Below, one piece after another: positions 541-64,000 of a stretch of DNA of 64,000 bases. A program made the position numbers and the translations under genes. The notes under the pieces are model-generated. The model was given only the letters and a program-made list of their open reading frames with translations. It made no database searches and was not told where the DNA came from. Position 1 is the first letter of the stretch, and each line of letters starts with the position of its first letter. Source of the DNA: Tubulanus polymorphus (Eukaryota > Animalia > Nemertea); contig NC_134031.1 of the NCBI RefSeq assembly GCF_964204645.1, positions 7,440,001-7,504,000 on the forward strand. The letters run 5' to 3'.

Positions 541-16551
<16,011 letters not shown>

Positions 16552-47468: not shown

Positions 47469-48118
47469 AATTGGAAAAATAACCGAGACTTACCTGGAAG
47501 TTGAAGGTTGTTTCTAATTCTGTCGAACTGCTGACCAATGGAGAGGTTACATGAGATACGCATGCGTAGATCCGACAGTCAATGTTCAACTTGCGAAATT
47601 TATCACAAAGTTACAATGGTGAGGTTAACTGGGTGAGGTTAAAATAAGGGAGTGCATGTAACCTCTCCATTGGTCAGCAGTTAGACAGAATTAGAAACAA
47701 CCTTCAACTTCCAGGTAAGTCTCGGTTATTTTTCCAATTCTATCTAACTGCTGACGTCATTACGAGGTTCCATGAGATGTTCAAAGTTGTGATAAATGAG
47801 TAAACCATAAATTAAAAACAACTATAACGCAAATCTAAAATTTACCAAAACATAACAGCATATATTTGCTTCAAATTTCAGCAACCCAATCTCAGGGTTT
47901 CATAACAAAACATATTTACAGCTCAGGCGAATAAAGCAAAATGTTCGCCTAAAAAACCACCAACAACTTATTCACACTAACTGATTTGCAAAAACCACAA
48001 AATCCAATCTGCCAAAACCAAGCAGTAAGTTATCTAACAAATAACTACTCAAACTCAATGATTTTTAACAATCTTTCACCACTGCATAAAACAGATTTGT
48101 ATACACGAATATTCCAAT

Positions 48119-49044
48119 TCAAATTACATTGAAATTTGATTCATCAGCTACAGGTTTCCTGTAATATTTTCTAAACACTGATTGATTTGACCATCCTGCC
48201 GTCTTCAATATAGATTGTATAGGCGTATTATTTCTTTCTGCCGCCGTAGTTGCCGCTGACCTAGTACTGTGAGGCGTAAAAATTGTCATGTCAACTCCTG
48301 CCCTTGTAAGCATTACTCTTATCCACCTTGACAATGTATCTCTACTTATAGGTCCATGTGATTTCACATATGAAATAAAAAATTTTGTTGTATCACCACG
48401 CAATTTTTCTGTTCGATTAAGGTAAACTTTACAATAGTTCACAATACAAAGACGTCTGTCTGGTACATAGGCTTTTAATGTTATCTCGGCCTGATGGAAA
48501 CCTGGCCTGGACTGTTTTAACAAATCACCAAACCGAATTTTTAACTTGTTTGTGGTAAGCGTTATATTTCTCAAGTCGATCAGATATAGAGACTGTCCTC
48601 TCGTTGACCAGTTAACAGCGCCAGTAATAAAACAAACTTTAATGTGAGATCTTTTAGCGACAAACTAACTGCCGGAGACAGGCCTTTCAGGAAATTTAAT
48701 ACTGGTTCCACCGACCAAATAACCCTATTTCTGGGTAAAGCTGGCCTTAAATTAAATATACCTCTCATGAATCGGCTAACTATGGGTACCTGACCAATAG
48801 GAGTTTTATCTAGATACAAAAAGGTAGAAAGCGCTGATCTCGCTGTATTAATGGCACTGTAACTTAGGCCTTTAGAATACAACTCAGATAAGAAATCTAA
48901 TACATTATTTACACTTCCCTCGTAGGGATCAGCATTCCTCCGAGCACAAAAACCGAGCCATTTGCGAATTTGCGTTGAGTATTGATCACGTGAAGACTCT
49001 CGCCACGATGCCGTGATAATGTCTCTAACTTCCTGAGAAAACAC
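48119..49044 (-). pseudogene. DIRS tyrosine recombinase
   Basis: SAINTARSALS, LTGQR (catalytic Arg), FTPHSTRSA (HxxR), AGWS, FRKYY (catalytic Tyr). One frameshift near 48580-48600. Confidence 0.93.
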
Positions 49045-50963
49045 TCCGTCTGTTGTTGTACGCCCGATATCCTCGCCGCGAAAAGATTCATCTTCGGTAG
49101 CTCGCTCATCTGTCTGGACGGATGCGTAAGAAGAGTGCTGTGGACTCTGGAGGATAGGAGAATAGGATAATCAATTAGCATGTTTACACATTTAGAAAAC
49201 CAATATTGTGTAGTCCAAACTGGAGCCACAATGATTGCCTGAGCACTTTCTAGCTGCTTGGATTTTTTTGTAGCGTCTTGCCCACCAAACAGAAGGGTGG
49301 AAACGCATAGACGAACTCTTCATTACACGGTACAGAGAATGCATCAACTGCTTCTGCCTGTGGATCCGGTTTCCAAGAGAAAAACCTTGGAACCTTGTGA
49401 TTATTTCGGGATGCAAAAAGATCAATAGCTGGCTCACCCCAAATTTGACACAACTTTCTAAACACTATGTCATTCAGGCCCCATTCAGTGTTATCATGGT
49501 AAGTACGACTCATAGCGTCTGCCTCAGTGTTTAGGGCTCCTGGCAGATAAGCAGCTGTCAACCATAAACCTCTAGCCTTGCACCAAAGCCAAGTTTCCCT
49601 AGCTATAGCATTACATTTTTCCTTTCTGCCGCCCATATTATTTAAGTAGGCGACCGTGACTTGATTATCAATTCTAATCAAGATATGAGTATCTGTTTCC
49701 GTTTTACACAAAGCTTGTAGGGTGAAAAGGGCAGCTTTCATCTCAAGTTGGTTTATATGCAAAGCTGCTTCCCAGCTAGACCGATTTCCACCCGTCTTAA
49801 GATTTCCTCGTGTTCCTCCCCACCCTATGCCACTAGCGTCAGAAGTGAGGAAAATTTCTGCTGGGGGCCTGGAGATTGGGTGGCTAACTTTCATTACATT
49901 TTGAGTCCACCACTGCAGATCCTCTCTGCACTCTTGATTGAGTTTCATTTTTGCGTTATAATTTCCAGCAGAATTTTTCAGCTCTCTTAAGATTGTCACA
50001 CCTTCTATAGTATAGTTTGCCATACTCAACGGCCTGAAAACTAGCCACCATCGTACCCACTAGAACTGCTAAGTCCTGTATCTTAATAGACTCTTTCTTG
50101 AGGGCATTGCTGGCAAGTTTCAAAATTTTTTCCCTTCTTTCTTGAGTGAGGGATATAGTCATTTTTATAGAATCAAAAACCACGCCAGCAAATGTAACCC
50201 TTTGAGCAGGGTCCATCATTGATTTTACAGGATGAGTAATGAAACCTGCGCAATCAGAAACCTCATGGGTATCCCTGACAGTCTTTCTGCACAGTTGTAA
50301 GGTCTGAGCGACCATAAAACAGTCATCAATCCAGGTAACCAATTGATGCTTCCTCAATTGAGAGAGAATCACCTTGACAATTTTAGTGAACAACCTCGGA
50401 GCTGACGTTAGTCCGTTCGGCATGGCATTGTAGGAATAGTATTTATCTCTCCACCTGAACTTGAAATATTTTCTAAATTGGTCTGCAACAGGAATACATT
50501 AATACGCATCTTTCCAATCAATAGTGGCCATATAACATTTAGGAGTAATCAAGTTAATGGCAGAATCTAGGGTGTCCATCTTAAAATGATGATATACAAT
50601 GACCTTATTAAGTTCTGTAAGATCTAAGATAACTCTCAAAGAACCATCTTTTTTATCTCGAGTAAATATGTTGGATACAAATTGGTCTCGTTCTTTTTTC
50701 GACTCTTGAATGACACATTTCTGGAGCATTTTCTCTACTTCCAAATCTATCAAATCTATCTTGTGTGACATGGTGACATCGAAACAGTATGGTTTAGGTT
50801 CTCTAAACTGGTTGGATACATTCTCAAATTCAATTTCGATGCCCCTAACCAACGACAGGATGTGTCGATCAGACGTTAGAGTTTTCAAAAAATCCAAAAA
50901 CTGAGCAATTCTGCCAGCTTTAAAATTTTTTACATCTGACTGAGCTTTAGCCAAGATGGACAC
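48909..50963 (-). pseudogene. DIRS reverse transcriptase / RNase H / Dam-like methyltransferase
   Basis: RT: RVILDL, DWKDAY, MPNGLTSAPRLFTK, WIDD. RNase H: SDASGIGWGG, HINQLE, IDNQ, NTEADAMSR. MTase: DLFASRNN..YAFPPF. Contains stops and frameshifts. Confidence 0.92.
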
Positions 50964-51010
50964 CTTATATTCATCCCACTCTAGATCAAAACTAGTTACC
51001 TGCCTGTTAG

Positions 51011-52058
51011 CTACTTGTTTCTTTCGGCCTTCTTTTTGGTGCCCTGGTTGCTTTGGTATGACCTCACTCTGTTGCCGCGGCCTCTCTGGTACTGATGGTA
51101 TTGTTGGTTGGAGGATTGATGACTGGAGTACTGTTGGCGGGAGCGTTGGTATTGGTAATGGTACGCGCCGCCCCCTCGCTTCGCTAAAAAATGAGGTCTC
51201 ATTTTATAATTCTGTATTTTAGAGTCACGTTGAGAATACTCTTTGTTGAATATGGCGCCAACTTTAGAGGGGTCATTGAGCTCTTTGACCTTATTTGCCA
51301 AGTCAACTCCAAATAAAACTTCAGAGGACTCTTTAACACTCTTACTGGCACAAATCGAACGATATTTTGGGTTTATGTGAGGTCTAAGTTTGTAGCGCCT
51401 TTGCTCTGCCAACGAGTGTATGGCTGCGCATGAAAGCGCAAACACATCCATCGTCATTTTAACGGCAAGTTTCAGATCATCTTGCTCCTTATTACTGAAA
51501 GCTCGATAAAATTCATCAGCTAAATATACGCCAGCATAGGCGGCTTTCGCCATTTTTGTGCCCATTTTTTGCAATTTAACATCATGGCTTCTACATTCTG
51601 ACGATATCGAAGACCAGATTTCTGGATTGATTGCGGGAGACCCCACAGCGATATTTTCGGTCAGACTAAACTTTGCAGGGATATTTACCTGGGCCGTTTC
51701 GCTGGAGGTTCGCCCTGAATAATAGCGCACATTTTTTCTAACTTAGAGTCAATAAGACTGCCCACTTTAGATAGAATCATAGCCTCAATTCCATCAAATT
51801 CATGTGAATTTTCATCATGAATTTCAAGCGCCGGTGAGGGATTGCCCCCATTACCACGGTTAGAAGGCTTGTTTTTATCCAACTTTCTGGTACGGGATCT
51901 GTCTTACTAATTTTAGCGACTGAGGCACACTCCGCGCTCGACTTATTAGCCGAGTCACCATGATTTTGAGGAAATTGTGAAAGAACACTTACTTCGTCAT
52001 TCACTGCATTTTTCTTCCATTTCTTCCATTCTTCCATTTCTTTGGCCATGATCGGCAC
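51011..52058 (-). pseudogene. DIRS gag-like ORF1 (frameshifted)
   Basis: PAINPEIWSSI..DVKLQKM..QRRYKLRPHINPKYRSIC..LFGVDLANKVKEL, typical of DIRS ORF1. Split across three frames. Confidence 0.75.
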
Positions 52059-52373
52059 CGGTAAAATTCAAAATGGCGGAGCGGTTCCGACACGCGAACA
52101 GTGAACACCAGAAAACAAAATCCAATCGCATCCACCAACAAAAAATTTTGTAACACAATGTCAAACGCCCAGCGTTGCTTAGATGGCCTAACAAGACGAT
52201 TGCGCCTTATAAGTTAGGTTTTGACACCGATAAACGAAAATTCGATCCCTTCAATCCGAATAATAGAACGACAAAGCACTGAACTTCGCCGGATCAAGCA
52301 TGCAATTGACTGTCGGATCTACGCATGCGTATCTCATGGAACCTCGTAATGACGTCAGCAGTTAGATAGAATT

Positions 52374-53131
52374 CGACATCCCCTGGGCTAGCAGAAAGAA
52401 TGGTTGTTTGAGTGGCACTAGCCCTTGAAGATGTATCCACAGAAGCGTGGCCGTCTATCCCTTTCAGGCCTCGATAACTGAGAAACCTGGGGAAATGATT
52501 TCGGATTTCCTGCGGAAAGGGGAGATGGTACCTTGTAAAGTGTTTCAGCTTAAAGCCTGTAATGATCGCATGGCATTAGCATCCAACTTTAACATCCAAT
52601 TAGATATTTTTGTATATCACTCCATATTTCCGGATCCAGGTAGGCGTCCTGGGGAGAGACGACTCGACTCCATTTATCCAACGGGTTTGAGGCAAAATGG
52701 TATGTATGAGATGGACAGATCAATATATCGTTAGTGTAAATCCAAATATCTGCTTGACGATGTCGTTAAAACGGGTGTTTCTCTCGCCTTCTAAGTTCCA
52801 AACAGAGATAAGAGCCTTGTTATCGACCAATGTTTCGACTCTCCGGTGTTTCGACTGGCCAACTAATTTCCCGTTGAGAATTCGCAAGCCCTTCAGTTTC
52901 CTTTAGCTGTTGTCTCCTGGTAGCCAGTAATCTGTTCAAGGGTACGTGACATGTCCTTCTGTCAGTGGTACCATGCCGTATCCTGACAGGGAAGCATCTG
53001 TAGCCAATTGAAAAGAAACGTGCTTTTCCACTCTCCATTTTACAAAACCTTGCCAATCCTCGAGAACCTCCAATGCAACACGCTTAAAGTTACCATCCAC
53101 CGAAGTAATATGGAAAGTGGGCTTTCAGATC
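52374..53131 (-). pseudogene. Older degenerate tyrosine-recombinase retroelement, RNase H/MTase half
   Basis: Minus strand reads LEDWQGFVKWRVEKHVSFQLATDASLSGYG, KETEGLAN, VDNKALISVWN, IDLSISYIP..SNPLDKWSR, LDANAMRS..LKHFTRY. Contiguous with 46770-47468 once the DIRS1 element is removed. Confidence 0.72.
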
Positions 53132-53188
53132 AGAGTACGAGAGTACGAGACACCACTCATCACCACAAGTAATTTTTTTTCCTTATAA

Positions 53189-56100
53189 ATGGGGGAGAAT
53201 GAACATCAGCCAGAAAACAATAATGCTAATAAAAATCAATATTATTGCCCATATTGTAAAAAATACATCGATAAATCTAATAAATCTTAACATGAAAAAT
53301 CTTCAAATCATATAAAAAATGTTATAGATTTTGAAACTCCAGAAAATTCCAATGAAAGAAAAGAACGATTAGAAAATATGAATGTGGATGAAATAAAATG
53401 TGAAGTTTGTGATGAATTTATAACAAAAAGGAATTATATTAGATTAATAGAATAATATAATAAATTATAATATCTCGAAACAGAAAAACACCGTCAAAAT
53501 TTGAGAAATAATGTTTTAGGAATAGATAATTTTGATGATAAAACTCAACAAGTAAAAAAACCAACTTCAAAAACTAAATCCATTTCAAATAAACCTTACA
53601 TGGAAAATGTTAGAAATTATATTGATTCACTAGAAATAAGAGATACAATTGAAATATTAGAAACATTACGTAGTAAAATTGGTCCTGCAGCTATTATATT
53701 TAGATTTTTTAAAGGTACAACAATAGAAGATTATAGTAAATTTAATGAAATGATAGAAAAAATACTAGATTTGATAACAGATGTTGAATATCCAAAAATT
53801 AGTATCTCTGGGAAAGTAAGTTTTTTAAAGTCAGAAGATAAAATGGATTATGATATTCAAACACTCTCTGAAGAAATAATTTCAAAAACACAAATAAAAG
53901 AGAAGTTAGAAAAAATATTTAATGAATTTAAACGTCATATTGAAGAAAGATATTTTGAGGGTTCTGGCTTAACATTGAATGAAATTATATTTTTAGATTT
54001 AAATGTTTATAATACAAAAAGAAATAAAACATCAAAAAGTAATAAAATGTTTAAAAATGATTCAAACTTTACAACAGAAAAGGAGTATATTAAAGCATCA
54101 TCTTATATTAAATTACCATTTACAACAAAAGCAGTAATAAATATTCAAAATGAAGATAATAAATGTTTTCTATGGCCAATTATTAGTTGCTTACATCCAA
54201 CACAGGAAAATGTTTGTAGAATAACAGATTACCGGAAATATGAAACATTATATAAAATTGATCAATATCCAGTAACTATAAAAATGATTCCTAAAATAGA
54301 AAAAGTTAATAATTTAAAAATAAATGTATTCGAATTAATGCAATTACCAAAGACAAAAGGTGAAAATATTAAAGATTATACATTGGAAGCTTTATATTTA
54401 ACAGAATATTATGATGATGAAAATGCTATAGATTTGTTATATTACAAAAAAGATGAAAATGAACATTATATGTGGTTAAAACAAATTGATTTATTCTTTA
54501 GAACAGAAAGTGATCATCATCATAAAATTTATCTATGTAGAAAATGTTTATCTAAATTTATGACTGTGAATACATTATTAAAACATAAAGAATTATGTGA
54601 TAATAAAGATTTTTGTAAATTAATAATGCCAACAGAAAAGATTATAAATTGAAATTTACTAATCATAAATTCAAAAATATTGTTCCATTTGTAATTTATG
54701 GGGATTTTGAATCGTTGAATAAAGAATTAACTGATCAAGATAGAAAAGAAATATATAACAAAAAGCAATTATTAAAATCAATGGATAAAGGAAATGAATT
54801 AAACGAAGACACAACACAAGACCCGCCAATTATAAATACAATTAAAAAAGTTCATCAAAGAGCTGCTGCTTATGGAATTTACATCAAATCAAATTATCCC
54901 GAATTATATGAAAGTCAATATATTTCTTTTAGAGGTGAAGATGTAGTTAATGATTTTTGTGACAAAATGATTGAATTAGAAAGTGATTTTGCAAAATTAT
55001 TAAACAAAAATAAAAGAATAGTTATGACAAAAGAAGATGAAATTGATTTTAATTATGCTACTCATTGTTGTTATTGTGAAAAACGTTTTTATTCATTTGA
55101 TAAAAAAGTTAGAGATCATAATCATTTAAATTCAAAATATCGTGGAGCTGCACATGAAGATTGTAATTTACAAGCTAAGAAAGTTAATTTTGTACCAATA
55201 TTATTTCATAATTTATCAGGCTATGATACCCATCTATTTATAAAACAATTATCGGGAAAATTGGGCGCAATTAATCAAGAAATAGAAGAATATAATGCTA
55301 TGAATGGTGTAAATGTAAGAAAATATGATTTTAAACTATTAGCTAAAATATCTGAAAATTATATTTCATTTCAATTTGGTTGCATTAGATTTTTAGATTC
55401 TTATAGATTTCGAGCAAGTTCATTAGATAATTTAGCAAAAAGTTTAGTTGATAATGATTTTGTTATAACTCGATATTATTATCCAAATGAACAAGATTTT
55501 AAATTATTGAGATATAAAGGTGCAATGCCTTATTCATTTTATAAAACACACAATGATTTTAATGTAACAGAATTATTAAAAGATCAATTTTATGATCAAT
55601 TAAAAGAGGAGTACGTGAAAGATGAAGTGTTTAATAGAACATTAAATATTTGGAACCATTTTAAGATGAAAAATCATGGTGAATTAGTTGATTTATATTT
55701 AAAATCAGATGTTATGATATTGGCTGACATATTTGAAAAATTTAGAGAAGTTAATTTGAATCATTTTAATGCTGATCCTTGTTATTGCTACTCTAGTCCT
55801 GGTTTAAGCTGGCAATGTGGTTTAAAATACACAAATGTAGAATTAGATTTATTAAAAGAACCAGACATGGTTTTATTATTTGAAAAATCAATTAGAGGTG
55901 GAATTAGTGGTGTTATGGGAGATAGGTATTTTAAAGCAAATGATGAATACAAATTATTATATATTGACGCCAATAATCTATATGGTTGGGCAATGATGCA
56001 ACCTCAACCATATAAAAATTTTATATTGACAGAAGTTGAAAATGATGATAAAACTGATTGGGAAAGCGCAATTGTGAGTTTAAAAGATGAAGCACCAATT

Positions 56101-58228
56101 GGTTATTTCTTTGTAGTTGATTTAGAATATCCTGAAAATATAAAGTTTAAAACAAGAAACTTACCTTATTGCCCAGAACATTTAACTGTAGATGATAGTT
56201 ATTTAACTGAATACCAGAAGAAAATAAAACCGAAAGATCATGTTTTTACAGAAAAATTAATACTTACTCAAAATAATAAATACAATTATATTGTTCATTA
56301 TAGGATGTTAAAATTTTATCTAAAACAAGGAATGAAATTAAAGAAAGTACATAGATATATTGAATTTAATTAATCGAAGTGGTTAGAAAAATATATAGAT
56401 TTCAATACTCAACAGAGATTCATATCAAAAACATATTTTGAAAAGATTTCTTCAAATTAATGAATAATAGTTTTAATGGTAAAACATGTGAAAATATTAG
56501 AAATAGAAATGATATTGATTTAGTAAATAATTCTGAAAGATTAAGACATTTACAATCAAGTCCTAGACATTTAGGAAATAAAAGATTTGAAGATTATTTA
56601 ACAGCAGTTAAATTAAAAAGATCGTCAATGAAATTTAAAAAAACCTATATTCATTGGTTCAACTGTTTTAGAAGTATCAAAATTATTAATGTATGATCTT
56701 TATTATAATGTTTTACAACCACTTTTTGGGGAAAAACATATAGAAATCTTATATTTTGATTCTGTTACAGCTGACACCCCAATATTATTAAAATGTAATG
56801 ATAAAATATTGATAAGAAGAATTTCAGAAATAATTCCAAAGGAAAATGAACGTTATATTTCATATGGTGAAAAAGAATTAATATAAATAAATGGTTTAAT
56901 GAATGTTTGGACAAGAAATGGATGGAAAAAATTAAAGAATATTATTAGGCATAAAACAAATCAGAAAATCTATAGAGTTAGAACTAAATTAGGGTTTGTA
57001 GATGTTACAGAAGATCATAGTTTAATTAAACGAAATGGTGATGAAATTAAACCAACTGATATAAAAATTGGAGATGAATTATTACATAAAAGATTTTACC
57101 CAAGAATGAATCATATGTCATTCGACGAAATTATTGATAATATTTATAATATGGAACCTGAAACATTAGAAGAAAAAGAATATTTTATCAAAGGATTTTT
57201 TATGGGAGATGGTTCAGCAGGTGTGTATAATTATGTTTGGGGTAATAAATATTGTTGGTATTTATGCAATCAAGACTTAAAATTATTAGAAAGAATTAAG
57301 GAATTCTGTGAAGAAGTTTATTCACATAAAACATTTAGAATCAAGGCATGTTATGAAATCATCAGCAGTTTATAGAATACTTGTAAATAATCCTAAAGAT
57401 TTTGCTATAAAATATAATGATGAATTCTATATTCATGCAATAGTGAAAAGTAATACTTCAACAAAAGAAAAGATAGTTCCAGATTATGTATTATATCCAG
57501 ATTATTTATTAAGTATAAAAAGATAACCTTTGCGCAAAAAGGAAAAGTTGCTATATCAGGATTAAATGTATTATGCAATTCATTAGGTTTTAATATGAAT
57601 ATTGGATTGATTAAATCTAAACCAAATTGCTTTAATTTAAACCATGTAGAAAATGAGTTAACAGAAGAAGTTAAATATTTATTTGAAATATGTAACCCAA
57701 CAGATTATGTTTATGATTTATCAACTGAAGATGGCACATTTAACTGTGGATTTCCATTAATAGCCAAAAATACGGATGCGTACATACTAAAAATCAAGAC
57801 AAATGACATAACAAAAGACTTAAAAACATTAAAACATCATTTTGATTTTAGCAATTATCCCAAAGATCATGAACTATTTAGCAATGATAATAAAAAGATT
57901 CCTGGAAAGTTTAAAGATGAATTAGGGGGTGATGAAATGATTGAATTTGTTGGGATAAGAAGTAAAATGTATAGTTACAGAACAAAAGATCATGAAGCTA
58001 AAAAGTTAAAAGGAATAACAAAACATGTGGTTGATAAACATATAGAATTTCAAGATTATATAAAGTGTTTATATAACTCAATTGTAATGAAACACAAAAT
58101 GAATTGTTTAAGATCAGAAGATCACGAGATGTACATTAATGAAGTTGAAAAAAACTAGTTTGAATCCATTTGATGATAAAAGGCATATTTTAGATGATGG
58201 TATAAAAACATTACCTTATGGTTATTAA
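53189..58228 (+). pseudogene. Protein-primed family B DNA polymerase (pPolB) containing an intein
   Basis: N-terminal C2H2 fingers, OTU-like INIQNEDNKCFLW..EHY region, ExoI VIYGDFES, EndoVII-like insert, ExoII FHNLSGYD, ExoIII YLKSDV, motif A IDANNLYGWAM, motif B KLMNNSFNGKT, motif C LYFD|TDAY split by the intein, PGKFKDE, KLKGI, C-terminal PFDDKRHILDDGIKTLPYGY. Several stops and frameshifts (53288, ~54650, 56371, ~56445, ~56640, ~58150). Confidence 0.95.
56761..57771 (+). mobile_element. Intein with LAGLIDADG (DOD) homing endonuclease in pPolB motif C
   Basis: Block A SVTADTPILL (Ser1), block B DVTEDHSL (TxxH), block C FIKGFFMGDGSAG, block F YVYDLSTEDGTFNCG, block G IAKN followed by Thr+1. 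Removal restores YFDTDAY. Span is 1011 bp. Confidence 0.93.
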
Positions 58229-59541
58229 AATGGATCAATATCATCAAACTCGAAATCACTATTGGTTTCTTCTTTTTCATTTAATTGTTCTTGTATAATT
58301 TGTTTAGGTTCTTCCATTTCATTTTTCTCATTTAAATAAAGTTCTATCTTGTACCACATTTCATCTCGCTCTCTTTGTTTCTTTTTGTTCGTTAATTCAT
58401 CAAATGGAATTATAATATCGATGTTTAAATAATTTACAATCTTATTTAAAAAGAATTCATAATTAATTGAATCTGTTATTTTATTATCCACATAATATTT
58501 TAATATGTTTGTGAACGTTTCTTTTATATTTCTTATATCTTCTTTTGTTAATTTAGGTTTTTTATAATAATCGTTAAATAATAAATATAAATACATTTTC
58601 TTTTCTTGTGTGTTAAATGTTGACGGAATAATTGTTTTTATTATATCTTTTTTAGTTATTTCGCCATTTTTATTTTCTATTTTTTTCATTTTTTCAAGCC
58701 ATTGCTTATATTCTGGTGTATGATCTTCCGTAGAAAATATTTTAAAAATTTCATCTAGATATTTTAATTTTGGTTCTATAAGAATATTTCTAGTTTTTTC
58801 ATCACCCCATAAATTCTTTTGCCATCCACATTCATTACAAAATATCACAGGACCTTCTTGTCTTAAGTACTCATAAATACATTTTGGGCATTTTTGTCTA
58901 TCATTTCTTAGTAATAGATCTTCATTAAGCTCTTGGTATTTTCTTACGTTTTCTTTATGTTTTATTGTTCTATTACGTAGATTTAAATTACTTGTTGTAA
59001 TAATCAATTTACAATAATATGTTTTTCTTACTAATTCATTATATTGTTTATCTAACTTTTCAACTATTTCTTTATTATCTGGTAACGTTTTCTCATATTT
59101 TATTTCTTCTAATAAACTATTTTTTCTTTCATTGAATTCTGTTTCGAATTTATTAGAAATTTTATCTATATGTACTTTACGAAATTGATGATTCTCCCAA
59201 GCTTCTATATTTTCAGGACTAAATTTCATTCGGCAAGGCTCACAGAAATGATCTTTTATATTATCCTTGTCAAAGAATAAGAAAGGTCTTTTCCAAATAA
59301 CTTCAGGTTCAGGTTCAGCAGAATTACTATTACTTTCGTTACTATCAACATTAACCGTTGCGTTATTAATTTTAGAATTCTCTGAATGTTTTTTAACATA
59401 ATTTCTTGAGAATAATTTATTACATTTTGGGCAGTTTATTTTAGGGGGTTTATAATTTTCATCATGTTTTTTCATATGTCGCGCCATATTACTTTTTCTT
59501 AGAAGTTCACCACAAATTTCGCATGGTATCATCTCATCCAT
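58225..59541 (-). CDS. Zinc-finger protein with C-terminal poxvirus/NCLDV late transcription factor VLTF3-like domain (438 aa, intact)
   Basis: N-terminal C2H2 fingers. Zinc ribbon CPKC..GPVIFCNECG, then KLKYLDEIF and INYEFFLNKIVNYLNI..LTNKKKQRERDEMWYKI, resembling the VLTF3 consensus (YxxxLxK..L..K...D.IWKKI). Its stop overlaps the pPolB stop (TTAA 58225-58228). Confidence 0.68.
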   Translation of the reverse strand: MDEMIPCEICGELLRKSNMARHMKKHDENYKPPKINCPKCNKLFSRNYVKKHSENSKINNATVNVDSNESNSNSAEPEPEVIWKRPFLFFDKDNIKDHFCEPCRMKFSPENIEAWENHQFRKVHIDKISNKFETEFNERKNSLLEEIKYEKTLPDNKEIVEKLDKQYNELVRKTYYCKLIITTSNLNLRNRTIKHKENVRKYQELNEDLLLRNDRQKCPKCIYEYLRQEGPVIFCNECGWQKNLWGDEKTRNILIEPKLKYLDEIFKIFSTEDHTPEYKQWLEKMKKIENKNGEITKKDIIKTIIPSTFNTQEKKMYLYLLFNDYYKKPKLTKEDIRNIKETFTNILKYYVDNKITDSINYEFFLNKIVNYLNIDIIIPFDELTNKKKQRERDEMWYKIELYLNEKNEMEEPKQIIQEQLNEKEETNSDFEFDDIDPF

Positions 59542-59610
59542 TTATTTAGGAAAAATTTTATTAAAATTAATTTTTAGTGATGAGCGGTAATTTTTTTTAT
59601 GTTATAAATA

Positions 59611-60369
59611 ATGGTAGAATTAAAAGAATACAGAATATTTGTTGATTCTAGAAAACGTACAAATTATAAATCACATAATTTATTAGTACAATTAGATAGA
59701 GAATTTAAGAATTGTGTTGATTTGAAATTAGTTAATATAAGTTTATGTAATTCTTTTTATAATGTATCGGATAAAAGTCTAGAACATTTAATTTTTTCAA
59801 TCTTTTACAAAAAAAGGAATAAATGGTTTTTTATATATTTAAAACCAGGATTATATAATTTAGATACATTAGCACAAGAAATTAATAGAAAAGCTCGAGC
59901 TTAATTAGGAAGTGATTCCGGATTTAGTATTAGATTTTCAAAAAGTGATAGTTCTAATAAAATAAAGATTAGGTTAGCTCATGACGAACAATTTAAATTT
60001 ACAGTAAGAAAACCTTTAGGTAAACTGTTAGGAATTAACCCAGATATTGTTACAGTAAACGCAGAAGGTAGATCAAATTTAATACCTTACACACATTTCT
60101 GTATTTATTGTAATTTAATTGATCCTACAAAAACATTTGAAGCAACTAAAGATACAACATGTAATTCTAGTATATTAAGTATTTTACCATTGAAGAACGT
60201 TAAACAATTTGGAACGCAAATAAATTATAATTTAGCTGAATGTGATTTTAAACCTTGTATTCCACATTTCAATAATTTTAAATTAGAAATAAGAAATCAC
60301 AATGGATATCTAATTGATTTAAATAACTTTCCTGTGATATATGAATTAGTTATAAGATGTAGAGAGTAA
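59611..60369 (+). pseudogene. Minor capsid (penton)-like protein, single internal stop at 59902
   Basis: Read-through gives 252 codons: IFVDSRKR..FKNC..L.NSFYNV..KPGLYNL..EIN..LGKLLGI..CIYCNLI..ILSILP..FG..FKLEIRNHNGYLIDLNN.PV.YEL, a single jelly-roll penton pattern. Confidence 0.7.
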
Positions 60370-60385
60370 TTTTTTCATTATATAA

Positions 60386-60745
60386 ATGAATATAACTGTT
60401 GGACCGAGTATATGTTTTGGGTTTGATTGTAAACGTGAGAAAGAAATGAAATTTAACATTAATGATGTAATTATACATATTAAAAATATTGCATTTTCTA
60501 ATGAAACATCATTTGAGTATGAAACAACAATAGATAAAGAAACTTTAAATGTAGAAAAGATTACTAATTTAATTAGAGAATCTTTAAGATTTTATGAATT
60601 AGATGAAGATTTTATCATCGATGATATTAAAAAAATAATAATTGAAATATATACAAATGAAACTAGTAATGAAATAAATGTTGAATTAATCATAAATAAG
60701 ATAACTAACTATTTTGAAGATAGTAATTTTTTGATTAATAAATGA
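60386..60745 (+). CDS. Hypothetical Polinton protein (119 aa)
   Basis: Intact ORF preceded by the conserved TAATTTTTT..TAAATG motif. Confidence 0.6.
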   Translation: MNITVGPSICFGFDCKREKEMKFNINDVIIHIKNIAFSNETSFEYETTIDKETLNVEKITNLIRESLRFYELDEDFIIDDIKKIIIEIYTNETSNEINVELIINKITNYFEDSNFLINK

Positions 60746-60973
60746 GTGATAATAAGTGGATAATAACTGGTTTATATAATGGAGCCTTACTATCAGTTGG
60801 AACTGTTGGTTATTCAATGGTATTAAATAAGAAGTATTTAAAATGTGAAGTGTTAATGTTGATAGATTTGATATCAATGATATTTTAAAATTAACATTAG
60901 CAGTTACTTTATCTAATTTAACTATTGATTATTTGGAAAAACAAAAATATATTCCTCCCATATAAATGCGTAA
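60742..60973 (+). pseudogene. Small Polinton protein (frameshifted)
   Basis: Motif-preceded ATG at 60742. MSDNKWITGLYNGALLSVGTVGYSMVL / ..DRFDINDILKLTLAVTLSNLTIDYLEKQKYIP resembles small conserved animal-Polinton ORFs. Confidence 0.55.
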
Positions 60974-60989
60974 TTATTTTACTAAATAA

Positions 60990-61415
60990 ATGGCTTCTGC
61001 AATTATAACTATTATAGGATCGGCAATTGTTATCGCTTTAGCATTTACTGGTGGTGGTTATTTATTTAAGCATATTGATAAAAATAGTTCATTAGGAGAA
61101 CAAAGAAGACATAACTTAGCATTAGAAAAATACAATAAAGCAGCAGAAGAATATAGAGAAAAGAGGCAAAACTATATGGATTATATTAACAAGGAATTAT
61201 ATGATCAGAAGATTTCACATAGAGATTTTCAATCAGTTAATGATGCAATGAGTTTATATAACGCGGTAAGCAATAAAGAAAAATTACATCTATACAAACC
61301 TAAATTATCAGATTATTATACCCCAAGTAAAGAACAACAGAAATATGAAATAATTTGGATTTTAGGCGGAACAGTTATTGTTATATTTGTAGCATATAAA
61401 TTTACTAATAAGTAA
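60990..61415 (+). CDS. Conserved Polinton protein with N- and C-terminal hydrophobic helices and central coiled coil (141 aa)
   Basis: MASAIITIIGSAIVIALAFTGGGYLF..EQRRHNLALEK..DYIN..DAM..Y, a pattern recurrent in invertebrate Polintons. Motif-preceded ATG. Confidence 0.7.
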   Translation: MASAIITIIGSAIVIALAFTGGGYLFKHIDKNSSLGEQRRHNLALEKYNKAAEEYREKRQNYMDYINKELYDQKISHRDFQSVNDAMSLYNAVSNKEKLHLYKPKLSDYYTPSKEQQKYEIIWILGGTVIVIFVAYKFTNK

Positions 61416-61430
61416 TTTTTTTCTAAATAA

Positions 61431-61884
61431 ATGGATGATAAAGTTGATAATATTGATATTATTCCTCATGATATAAATAAAACTAAATTAAAAATATATT
61501 TAGAAAAACAAATATTAGAATTTGAAAAAGATTTAAAAGTTATTAAAAATTCATATTATTTAAAAGAAAAAATATTTAAAATCTAAAATTATATATTATT
61601 TGATTATAATTGGTTCGGTTACAATTAGTTCTGTAATAACATTTCTAGCAATATTTTCGCCATTAACACCTTTAGCTATATCAATTGGCGTATGAGGATT
61701 AAGTTCAAGTGTTTTAACTGCTATAAGTTCAAAATTAAATATAAAAAGTAATAAAGAAAAAATTAAAACTAATATAAAAGAAATTAATAAATTAATGAAT
61801 ACACTAGATTATATAATACGTTTAAATGGCCATATAACAGTTGAAGAACAAGATAAATTATTAAAAGAATCAATAAATTATTAA
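61431..61884 (+). pseudogene. Two-TM coiled-coil Polinton protein (disrupted)
   Basis: Motif-preceded ATG. One frameshift and one TGA. Hydrophobic IIYYLIIIGSVTISSVITFLAIFSPLTPLAISIGV*GLSSSVLTAI. Confidence 0.55.
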
Positions 61885-61899
61885 TTTTTAATTATATAA

Positions 61900-63306
61900 A
61901 TGGTAGATAGTTTTCCAAAAGCTTTCCAATATAATAAATCAATTAAATATAATATTCCAGCAATAGATTTTAATAAAGATATTTCATATAGAAATGAAGT
62001 TTTAAATTCATTAATTGCTTTATATATTTATGTTACTGAAACTAATTATTTTAATGTTAAGATGGGAAATATATTTCATGTGTATACAATTAATTTCAAA
62101 AATTTAAATGAGGCAAAACAATGGTTATTAAAATCTAATATGAAGTATTGGCAGAACCAATTAAATGTTGCTGTTTATTGTGCAACAACAGGATGTGGAA
62201 TTAGTTGGAATGATCATTTAAACAAACCAAGTTTACCATTGATGTTATCACTCTTTAGATTTCATACATACTTTCAAACAATATTAATATTAGATGAATT
62301 AGAATGTCCTTTACCAGGTTCAAAATTTTTTAAAGAATTGAATAATAATATTAATTTTTCTAAGGTTATAAAATATGTAATGAATTTAATATTAATTCAA
62401 ATAAAGATTTTAGAGCCAAAATTGGAACAATGGGTGGATTAGGAATATTATATACTAAAGAATTTGGAAAAATAATGGCAAATTCAGATATAAGAACACT
62501 AAATTGGAATGAATTACCAAAATATTATAATAATATACAACAACAAAACAATAATTGTTGGGTTAATTTCATTTTAGAAAATAGTGAAGGTTTTACTAAA
62601 GCTGGAATACAAAGAATAAATCAATCTATTAGAACTTATTTGATATGTATTTTAGGCGCGCAAGTTGAAACAAGATCACCAATAGTTGGAAATGATAACA
62701 CTTCATTCGATGCGCAGAAACAATTCAAAGTATTATTTGAAGATTTAATTCATAATGATAAAAATAGATCGATTCCAGAAAACATTGTAAGATATCAAAA
62801 TTCTTTAGATAGTATTATTTGAAGATTCAATTCATAATGATAAAAATAGATCGATTCCAGAAAACATTGTAAGATATCAAAATTATTTAGATAAATCTCA
62901 TGTAAGACTAAATTATTGTATAGGCCCTAATCTATTAATTATTTCTAATGATTTAGTATTAAAGATGGGAAATATAATTGGTTATAATAATCTAATTAAA
63001 ACTGCAACAATAAATAATTCATTTGGATTGAATGATATAAATAAAAAGATAATTACTGCTCCCAAATTAATGGAAGGTGAAAAAAATAAAAAACACATTC
63101 AATCAACTGAAGCTAAAACTAAAAATATTAAATTGGATAATGATTCTAAAATAAAAGATTACAATACTACAGAAAATATTAAAACTGATAATATTCAACA
63201 TGAAATAATTAAACTAAATGATGATAATAAATCCCATGAAAATGCTAAATTAGCTTTAACTTTTATAGGAATTGTAATCGGAGGAATATTATATTTTAAA
63301 TTTTAA
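61900..63306 (+). pseudogene. Conserved Polinton protein with C-terminal membrane anchor (disrupted)
   Basis: YWQNQLNVAVYCATTGCGIS..HL, FRFHTYFQ, SEGFTKAGIQRINQSIRTY..CILGAQVETRS, DAQKQF, IGYNN, C-terminal LALTFIGIVIGGILYF. Broken by a frameshift at ~62370 and an 82-bp tandem duplication (62729-62810/62811-62892). Confidence 0.72.
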
Positions 63307-63322
63307 TTTTTTTATTATATAA

Positions 63323-64000
63323 ATGGATGTAGAAATTCCATTGGATCCTTTAGATGAACCTTCTAATTCTAATTTACCTACACTTGAATATATTGATAAA
63401 GCACGTTCAAAGATAAATACTGAAAATGAAGTTACAGAAATAACAAAAAAAGAATTAAAATATGACAATTTAACTGATAAATTCAAACCAATATTAGAAA
63501 AATCTGGATTCAATATAACAAATGAAGGTGTGAATTATTTAGTAAAAGATTTGAAATATTTAAATGGTGATTATTATTGGAATTTGAAAGATGACTATTA
63601 TTTTAAGATTTCTTCTAATTAAAGTCTCGATAAAATAATAACAAAATCAACTTTTATTAAATTAGAACAATCTAGAATTAAGAAAATCAATAATGATGTT
63701 ATAACTGATGTTACAAAAGAAGAGATAACTCTAAATAGATGGGAATTTAATCGAAGAAATGATGATTTTTTGAAGATAATTAATGAAAATTTAGAACCAA
63801 AAACAATTCCTAAAGAAGTTGATAATTCCAAAACTAGTAAAAGTCAAATCAACCGAAGTTCAAACTGAAAAACTTTTACAAAATGGGTTACTTGATGCAA
63901 CAGATCAAGAATTAGAAGATTTAAATATATTTTCTGATGAAGCAATTAGAGAAATTATTAGTATGATTAAATTATTATTAGTTATAGAAATGAAGCTGAT
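63323..64000 (+). pseudogene. Hypothetical Polinton protein (disrupted, truncated by window edge)
   Basis: Motif-preceded ATG. The frame continues past the TAA at 63620. Confidence 0.5.

Follow-up and report, generated by a model that had tools for sequence, protein, structure and literature searches.

The question raised by this locus is which transcription machinery reads an integrated DNA element whose genes all begin with the same short motif. The window, i.e., the whole 64,000-nt stretch of the nemertean Tubulanus polymorphus that was analysed (NC_134031.1, positions 7,440,001 to 7,504,000), holds at its right-hand end a decayed, multi-copy Maverick/Polinton that extends past the right window edge. 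The motif, a T-run followed after a short gap by TAAAT(G), is present on all nine genes of the element within the window, and one of these genes encodes a predicted poxvirus-type late factor; the element is therefore likely to be activated by a large DNA virus infecting the same cell, and not by the host. Judging from sequence comparison, we consider it rather probable that the motif is a late promoter read by the RNA polymerase of such a helper virus, in which case the element would live off an animal virus as a satellite, in the manner of mavirus.

The start motif and its conservation among relatives

With a relaxed pattern, nine motifs were counted in the 10.9-kb element and none in 53.1 kb of host DNA, compared to a mean of 0.45 and a maximum of 3 when the element was resampled 500 times with an order-2 Markov model; this pattern was fitted to the nine motifs themselves, and relatives of the element provide the stronger test. 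The nine strings of the original prediction were confirmed, the eight on the plus strand occurring once each, where predicted, and the minus-strand string beginning at 59560, with its ATG at 59541. In each of the nine, 5-7 nt separate the T-run from TAAAT. The first motif (53170..53191, plus strand; T8, 5 nt, TAAATG) marks the start of the gene for a DNA polymerase B of the protein-primed kind (pPolB), has no upstream gene and lies ~30-40 nt inside the element end. The second (59539..59560, minus strand; T5, 6 nt, TAAATG) and the third (59588..59613, plus strand; T8, 6 nt, TAAAT) belong to a divergent pair, and in the third, which serves the start at 59611, three additional bases separate TAAAT from the ATG. 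No tandem upstream gene is present at three of the nine motifs. The other six, all on the plus strand, were located at 60367..60388, 60724..60744, 60971..60992, 61413..61433, 61882..61902, and 63304..63325. It had been proposed that the leading TAA is often the stop codon of the upstream gene, so that the spacer is the whole motif. This holds for four motifs (60367, 61413, 61882, and 63304), with gaps of 15-16 nt, but not for the other five, including the motif at 60724, which sits within the 3' end of the upstream open reading frame (ORF), and that at 60971, which begins 5 nt past the upstream stop. In addition, CTCATCAC and its reverse complement GTGATGAG were seen at 53156-53163 and 59577-59584, a few bases upstream of the first and third motifs; they were not found in the relatives L001-L003, described below.

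The T-run directly follows a stop in four of the nine cases and AATAAA lies within the motif in four of the nine, an arrangement that could also be explained if the T-run and AATAAA were end signals of the upstream gene, as a T-tract terminator or a poly(A) signal. T-runs are indeed depleted in coding DNA (z -3.7). However, A-runs are equally depleted (A6 z -4.3), indicating general homopolymer avoidance, and the T-run as terminator was rejected on this ground. Moreover, the terminal gene and both divergent pairs (in the window and in L001) carry the motif and the convergent junction at 58225-58228 lacks it; we regard an end signal as very improbable. As it is found at divergent and terminal genes and within upstream coding DNA, the motif belongs to the downstream gene. 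The further argument that the element leaves no room for a promoter of host RNA polymerase II (Pol II) is weak alone, since the coding DNA upstream can itself house such a promoter.

A search with the 141-aa gene of the element as query returned 10 homologues and four metagenome loci. Gene order is kept in L001-L003, which are syntenic with the window. L001 carries further genes, namely a likely capsid gene of 415 aa, an integrase with an rve domain (E 1.5e-10) plus a chromodomain, an A32-like packaging ATPase (PF04665, E 4.6e-11), a deoxynucleoside kinase, and the start of the zinc-finger gene. The 415-aa ORF has 98 homologues but no Pfam or PDB match; it is a putative double-jelly-roll major capsid gene, and the element a presumed group 2 Maverick, with a capsid module presumably of the Maverick type, unlike that of mavirus. 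The kinase gene (L001 10343-10981; PF01712, E 1.7e-31) is headed by the same motif. The claim that all nine Polinton genes bear the motif thus stands for the nine in the window, but the window cuts the element off on the right, and the capsid, integrase, and ATPase genes were seen only in L001.

Across the window and L001-L003, TAAAT is present at all 36 selected starts, and directly on the ATG in 33. ATAAATG heads 33 of these 36 starts versus 19 of 1,084 other ATGs, and when the T-run is included the numbers are 27 of 36 versus 3 of 1,084, bearing out the expectation that the motif is commoner at starts than elsewhere. Left out of the 36 were a short L001 ORF at 10385, antisense ORFs, and the L001 integrase ATG at 7588, which is without the motif and lies in frame behind a motif-bearing ORF at 7141, past one stop. 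An automatic count in L001 found the motif at 13 of 14 starts, the miss being this internal ATG. In the whole integrase frame (L001 7141-8469), the motif-bearing start is separated from the rve domain by one stop, which may reflect decay or be read through. When the window is compared with its relatives, 53 of 105 fourfold sites match, which we read as near saturation for such AT-rich DNA; since the motif is retained in spite of this, it is being maintained. Overall, the start motif is real and is conserved across the clade; the Maverick that bears it is integrated and of animal type, and has a predicted pox-like late factor alongside.

In IMG/VR, no relatives of the element were found with pPolB, the capsid, a capsid alignment, or a VLTF3 alignment as query, and none were found in a phage collection; a word-based search with the 438-aa protein of the element gave no match. 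L005, a lone match, was dropped because it is a phage. A strict-motif scan of IMG/VR, used only as a lead to comparators, gave 85 single matches, many of them away from gene starts and none of them a relative of the element.

Poxvirus-like promoter layout and the VLTF3-like protein

Poxvirus late promoters are described in the available text of PMC5294985 as a T-rich core, 5-7 bp, and TAAAT[G/A], and the late transcripts acquire poly(A) leaders by slippage (PMC6211774, in the part available). The layout of the element's motif is the same, as had been proposed, with a T-rich core, a 5-7 bp spacer, and TAAAT(G) overlapping the start codon (compare the accessible sections of PMC5294985, PMC6211774, and PMC4542343), and its T-peak lies as in poxvirus starts. 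It differs from the poxvirus promoter in being tighter, with a fixed A at -4 and TAA/TAW before the T-run, and in standing on every gene, including that of the DNA polymerase.

As comparators, we used 36 poxvirus stretches (one Pfam-checked) and 23 iridovirus-like loci, seven of which were counted (L093, L094, L101, L104, L105, L110, and L115). TAAATG is found at 259 of 562 poxvirus ORF starts. TT at -13/-12 is present at 28 of 33 element starts, and at 75 of 127 starts in AT-rich and 24 of 41 in GC-rich poxviruses (distal rate 0.07); the corresponding numbers are 16 of 49 for iridovirus-like loci (other starts, 4 of 59) and 4 of 14 for giant viruses. The upstream T-peak of the element at -13/-12 coincides with that of poxvirus TAAATG genes.

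It could be argued that the motif is merely translation context combined with compaction, that is, AAA before the ATG, a stop just ahead, and AT-rich filler. A-rich contexts do precede most starts in AT-rich giant-virus controls, and TAA-ATG junctions are common in compact genomes. However, of 84 starts in these controls, four bins that were themselves chosen via a motif match, ATAAATG heads 11 and the two-part form only 3, compared to 9 of 9 in the window, indicating that AT-richness and compaction do not produce the motif. The invariant AT at -4/-3 and the T-run at a fixed 5-8 nt also fall outside a Kozak-like window, and starts that lack an upstream stop still have the motif. We consider an origin in translation context improbable.

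The 438-aa protein provides a second line of evidence. Its C-terminal half received an Atlas score of 0.95, with 29 of 30 matches in PF04947 (VLTF3) clusters and 220 of 256 features. A model predicted from seven sequences (pLDDT 74.8) matched, in Foldseek, the A2 proteins of an entomopoxvirus (E 7.9e-6), cowpox (1.3e-5), and MSEV (2.8e-4). Against the PDB, Foldseek returned nothing at E <= 0.001, and the weak rows for Rap94 and TFIIB at E >= 0.36 are only a hint. On the basis of this modelling, the C-terminal domain is predicted to fold like VLTF3. Although this copy of the element is otherwise broken, the gene has stayed intact, and it is conserved in relatives (P0113-P0118). One homologue is on a 12,994-nt contig, and a 56%-identical capsid gene is also on a 12,994-nt contig, suggesting that the VLTF3-like gene is widespread in the clade. 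Some polintoviruses were already reported to have VLTF3 (PMC11131425, in the part available).

A putative helper virus

If a helper virus does read these promoters, integrated copies would remain silent until the helper infects the cell. The late machinery of the helper would then bind the T-core at -13/-12 and start inside TAAAT, and the resulting messages would have no templated 5' untranslated region and probably a slippage poly(A) leader. The pPolB and VLTF3-like genes share the motif with the structural genes, and the polymerase, integrase, and capsid genes would be expressed together, late. The zinc-finger-VLTF3 fusion would then likely attract the polymerase of the helper to promoters of the element, while the first round would need an outside factor, because the VLTF3-like gene itself sits behind the same motif. 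No RNA polymerase was found in domain scans of the window part or of L001, both of which are partial genomes. In 24 kb of coding DNA, AATAAA occurs 125 times versus 120.5 expected, or ~5 per kb, a count made without a nuclear positive control; such non-avoidance suits cytoplasmic transcription.

As to the identity of the helper, we tentatively put a pox-like virus first and an iridovirus-like virus, which is clearly less likely, second; some other large DNA virus appears improbable. A more elaborate version of the pox-like case, which we offer as a speculation that may well not hold in full, is that the clade consists of animal provirophages of an as yet undescribed pox-like invertebrate virus: the poxvirus late promoter would have been copied to every gene, a captured A2/VLTF3 would have been fused to zinc fingers so as to bring the helper's RNA polymerase to the DNA of the element, and the integrated copies could form an inducible antiviral reserve, like that of mavirus in protists.

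A number of observations weigh against the helper-virus reading, or against a pox-like helper in particular. ATAAATG heads 51 of 119 iridovirus-like ORFs, so that the initiator is not pox-specific, and A at -4 is found at 33 of 33 element starts and 48 of 49 iridovirus-like starts, as opposed to 53 of 127 in poxviruses. A pox-versus-iridovirus likelihood favours pox at 21 of 33 starts over -20..-4 and at 24 of 33 near the ATG, but at only 9 of 33 over the core (-20..-10), and these counts are non-independent, as the pox set repeats a few orthologous genes over 26 and 9 genomes, and orthology likewise links the starts in the element and its relatives. Iridovirus-like ATAAATG genes avoid AATAAA (z -2.8). 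With regard to the late factor, the best named Foldseek matches are poxvirus A2 proteins, above the named VLTF3s of other families and with many VLTF3 rows in the top 50, but rank 2 is an unnamed protein and rank 4 has an unrelated label, and Foldseek rank is no phylogeny, short targets aligning better. Pfam gave no PF04947 match for the 438-aa protein, and hhalign of 7 versus 3 sequences gave a probability of 0.5%; the protein is classed, from its predicted model, as VLTF3-like, short of PF04947 membership. Distant relatives differ in their starts, L004 having TAAATG alone, L006 TAAAATG, and L007 nothing, and the motif is a feature of the clade rather than one shown for all Mavericks. Finally, the tens of genomic copies of the element show frequent nuclear access, the helper virus is putative, and the transcript starts are predicted.

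The iridovirus-like starts nevertheless differ from those of the element. Their enrichment of TT at -13/-12 is weaker, AATAAATG is present at 46 of 49 of them versus 16 of 33 in the element, and the two-part form heads only 10 of 119 ORFs. A fair statement, from the sequences compared, would be that the motif is a late promoter of large-DNA-virus type, with a core nearest to that of poxviruses and an initiator nearest to that of iridoviruses. About half of the genes in L093, L094, L101, and L104 start with AATAAATG, and in L104 (GC 0.46) all eight ATAAATG in 20 kb are gene starts. The AATAAATG start motif does not appear in the available iridovirus text of PMC5294985. As a separate observation on the distant relatives, three of four long ORFs in L006 (33% capsid identity) start with TAAAATG, a possible variant initiator.

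The strongest alternative is an autonomous nuclear virus, in which the element's own zinc-finger-VLTF3 would recruit host Pol II to the motif, the pox-like appearance having arrived with the captured factor. There is precedent in the mriyaviruses and ariadnaviruses, which keep VLTF3, lack an RNA polymerase, and are thought to be nuclear, according to the accessible text of PMC11253617 and 10.64898/2026.08.29.747986; the retention of VLTF3 by such viruses is a further point against a helper. The chromodomain integrase of L001 and the preservation of the VLTF3-like gene, in the broken copy and among relatives, also fit a nuclear life. On the other hand, the VLTF3-like gene and the polymerase gene share the motif, so that no host-readable early gene is apparent, although the particle could carry the factor in with it. 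The TATA-like word at -8 to -1 would, given the established TATA spacing, place the Pol II start within the coding sequence. Coding DNA with AATAAA at the density given above and a T-peak coinciding with that of poxviruses also argue against this alternative, which we consider unlikely, if still deserving serious attention. The original prediction of transcription by a viral RNA polymerase is thus strengthened by the VLTF3-like gene and the T-peak, and weakened by the initiator shared with iridovirus-like loci, the equivocal likelihood, and the occurrence of VLTF3 in nuclear viruses.

The helper-virus reading has a counterpart in mavirus, whose promoters match the late motif of CroV and whose activation was proposed to proceed via the helper's late transcription factor (10.1101/068312, in the part available). 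Like mavirus as described there, the element is an integrating virus with pPolB and, judging from L001, an rve integrase, and its promoters resemble the late motif of a large virus; unlike mavirus, it resides in an animal-like host, has T-run/TAAATG rather than TCTA, and encodes its own VLTF3-like gene, and its helper is putative. We liken the element to virophages by its way of working and do not place it in Lavidaviridae. Polinton-like viruses have also been found in entomopoxvirus occlusion bodies and proposed to be poxvirus parasites (Barth et al. 2024, PMC11296320, in the sections available). These are likewise small animal double-stranded DNA elements, two of them with capsids placed beside Maverick group 2, but they encode a cysteine protease and some are without an integrase, whereas the present element forms an integrated family of many copies, with a signal at the level of its promoters; no cysteine protease was seen in the window part or L001. 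The words 'promoter', 'motif', and 'transcription' have 0 occurrences in the main text of PMC11296320.

Group 2 Maverick/Polintons (adintoviruses), as far as they are described in the available portions of PMC11131425, PMC8502044, and 10.64898/2026.06.19.733378, share with the element pPolB, variable accessory genes, and, judging from L001, an rve integrase, an A32 ATPase, and capsid genes, and the VLTF3-bearing subgroup described in the same portions includes coral polintoviruses. The element is set apart from them by its very low GC content of 0.20-0.25, an intein in pPolB, and the deoxynucleoside kinase in L001, and the promoter motif and helper dependence do not appear in those portions. 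No report of such a promoter in Mavericks was found in the full-text literature, a scope that does not extend to supplements, Repbase notes, and subscription papers. It has long been asked how expression of animal Mavericks comes about and why no particles of theirs have been seen. If the helper-virus reading is true, the presence of such a promoter at each gene would account for their silence in healthy tissue, and the virophage strategy, so far one of protists, would extend to elements integrated in animals. Should the helper be pox-like, the motif together with the A2-like domain would indicate that these hosts have a large virus that is still undescribed. The question is thereby reduced to a testable 22-nt motif.

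The element and its surroundings

The identification of the element as a Polinton was upheld by its pPolB gene (53189..58228, plus strand; PF03175, E 8.8e-13), which contains several stops and frameshifts, and by multi-copy integration. Its left end lies at ~53133-53141 (listed as 53133..53169), where the GC content falls from 0.45 to 0.27 (or from ~0.44 to 0.23 near 53140), the flank contigs end at 53141-53143, and read depth jumps. In run X5, which consists of raw DNA reads from a separate study labelled with the same species, the element is covered at a depth of 84-1,135 versus 13 in the sole flank bin, and hundreds of reads at the left end carry different flanks, several of them distinct. 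The family comprises roughly tens of copies, integrated in the genome. Contigs of run X7, presumably RNA, matched in two short pieces only. In the same run, 382 reads diverge from the window sequence right after 53193, 5 bases into the first ORF, which would fit a short terminal inverted repeat bearing the promoter and start codon; given such a repeat, both end genes could share one promoter.

Inside the catalytic YxDTD motif of pPolB is an intein with a LAGLIDADG-like segment (56761..57771, plus strand), itself broken, supported by Pfam Intein_splicing (E 4.5e-4, below the cut-off) and by PI-PkoII in the PDB (E 2e-5). Read depth is reduced over this region and one contig omits 56754-57770, and it is likely that the family has alleles with and without the intein. 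Inteins are unusual in animal nuclear DNA, and among the matches listed no paper was on inteins in Polintons by title.

The stop of pPolB overlaps that of the convergent gene for the 438-aa protein (58225..59541, minus strand), an intact ORF with N-terminal zinc-finger-like segments ahead of the predicted VLTF3 (poxvirus A2-like) domain. The plus-strand genes that follow have counterparts in L001. The first (59611..60369), which has one internal stop, is a likely minor capsid (penton) gene, a label inferred from a DUF5901 match (E 1.6e-4, below the cut-off, with the stop read as X), and shares 42% identity with the L001 ORF at 565. It is followed by a 119-aa ORF (60386..60745), orthologous to the L001 ORF at 1333, and by a small, frameshifted hydrophobic gene (60742..60965), orthologous to the 75-aa L001 ORF at 1733. 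The 141-aa gene (60990..61415) is intact, with hydrophobic ends, and shares 64-77% identity with nine of its relatives and 42% with a tenth. A broken two-helix membrane gene (61431..61884), whose L001 orthologue is weakly SLATT-like (E 0.0013, below the cut-off), precedes a broken gene with a C-terminal hydrophobic tail (61900..63306), orthologous to the 442-aa L001 ORF at 2996 and containing an 82-nt tandem duplication at 62729-62892. The last gene (63323..64000), broken and running past the window edge, has its orthologue in L001 in the ORF at 4328, located ahead of the capsid gene.

The host flank contains exon-sized scramblase and thioredoxin pieces, and the host looks animal. About 760 nt to the left of the Maverick, at 47469-52376, lies a DIRS-like retroelement with a reverse transcriptase, a tyrosine recombinase, and inverted end repeats.

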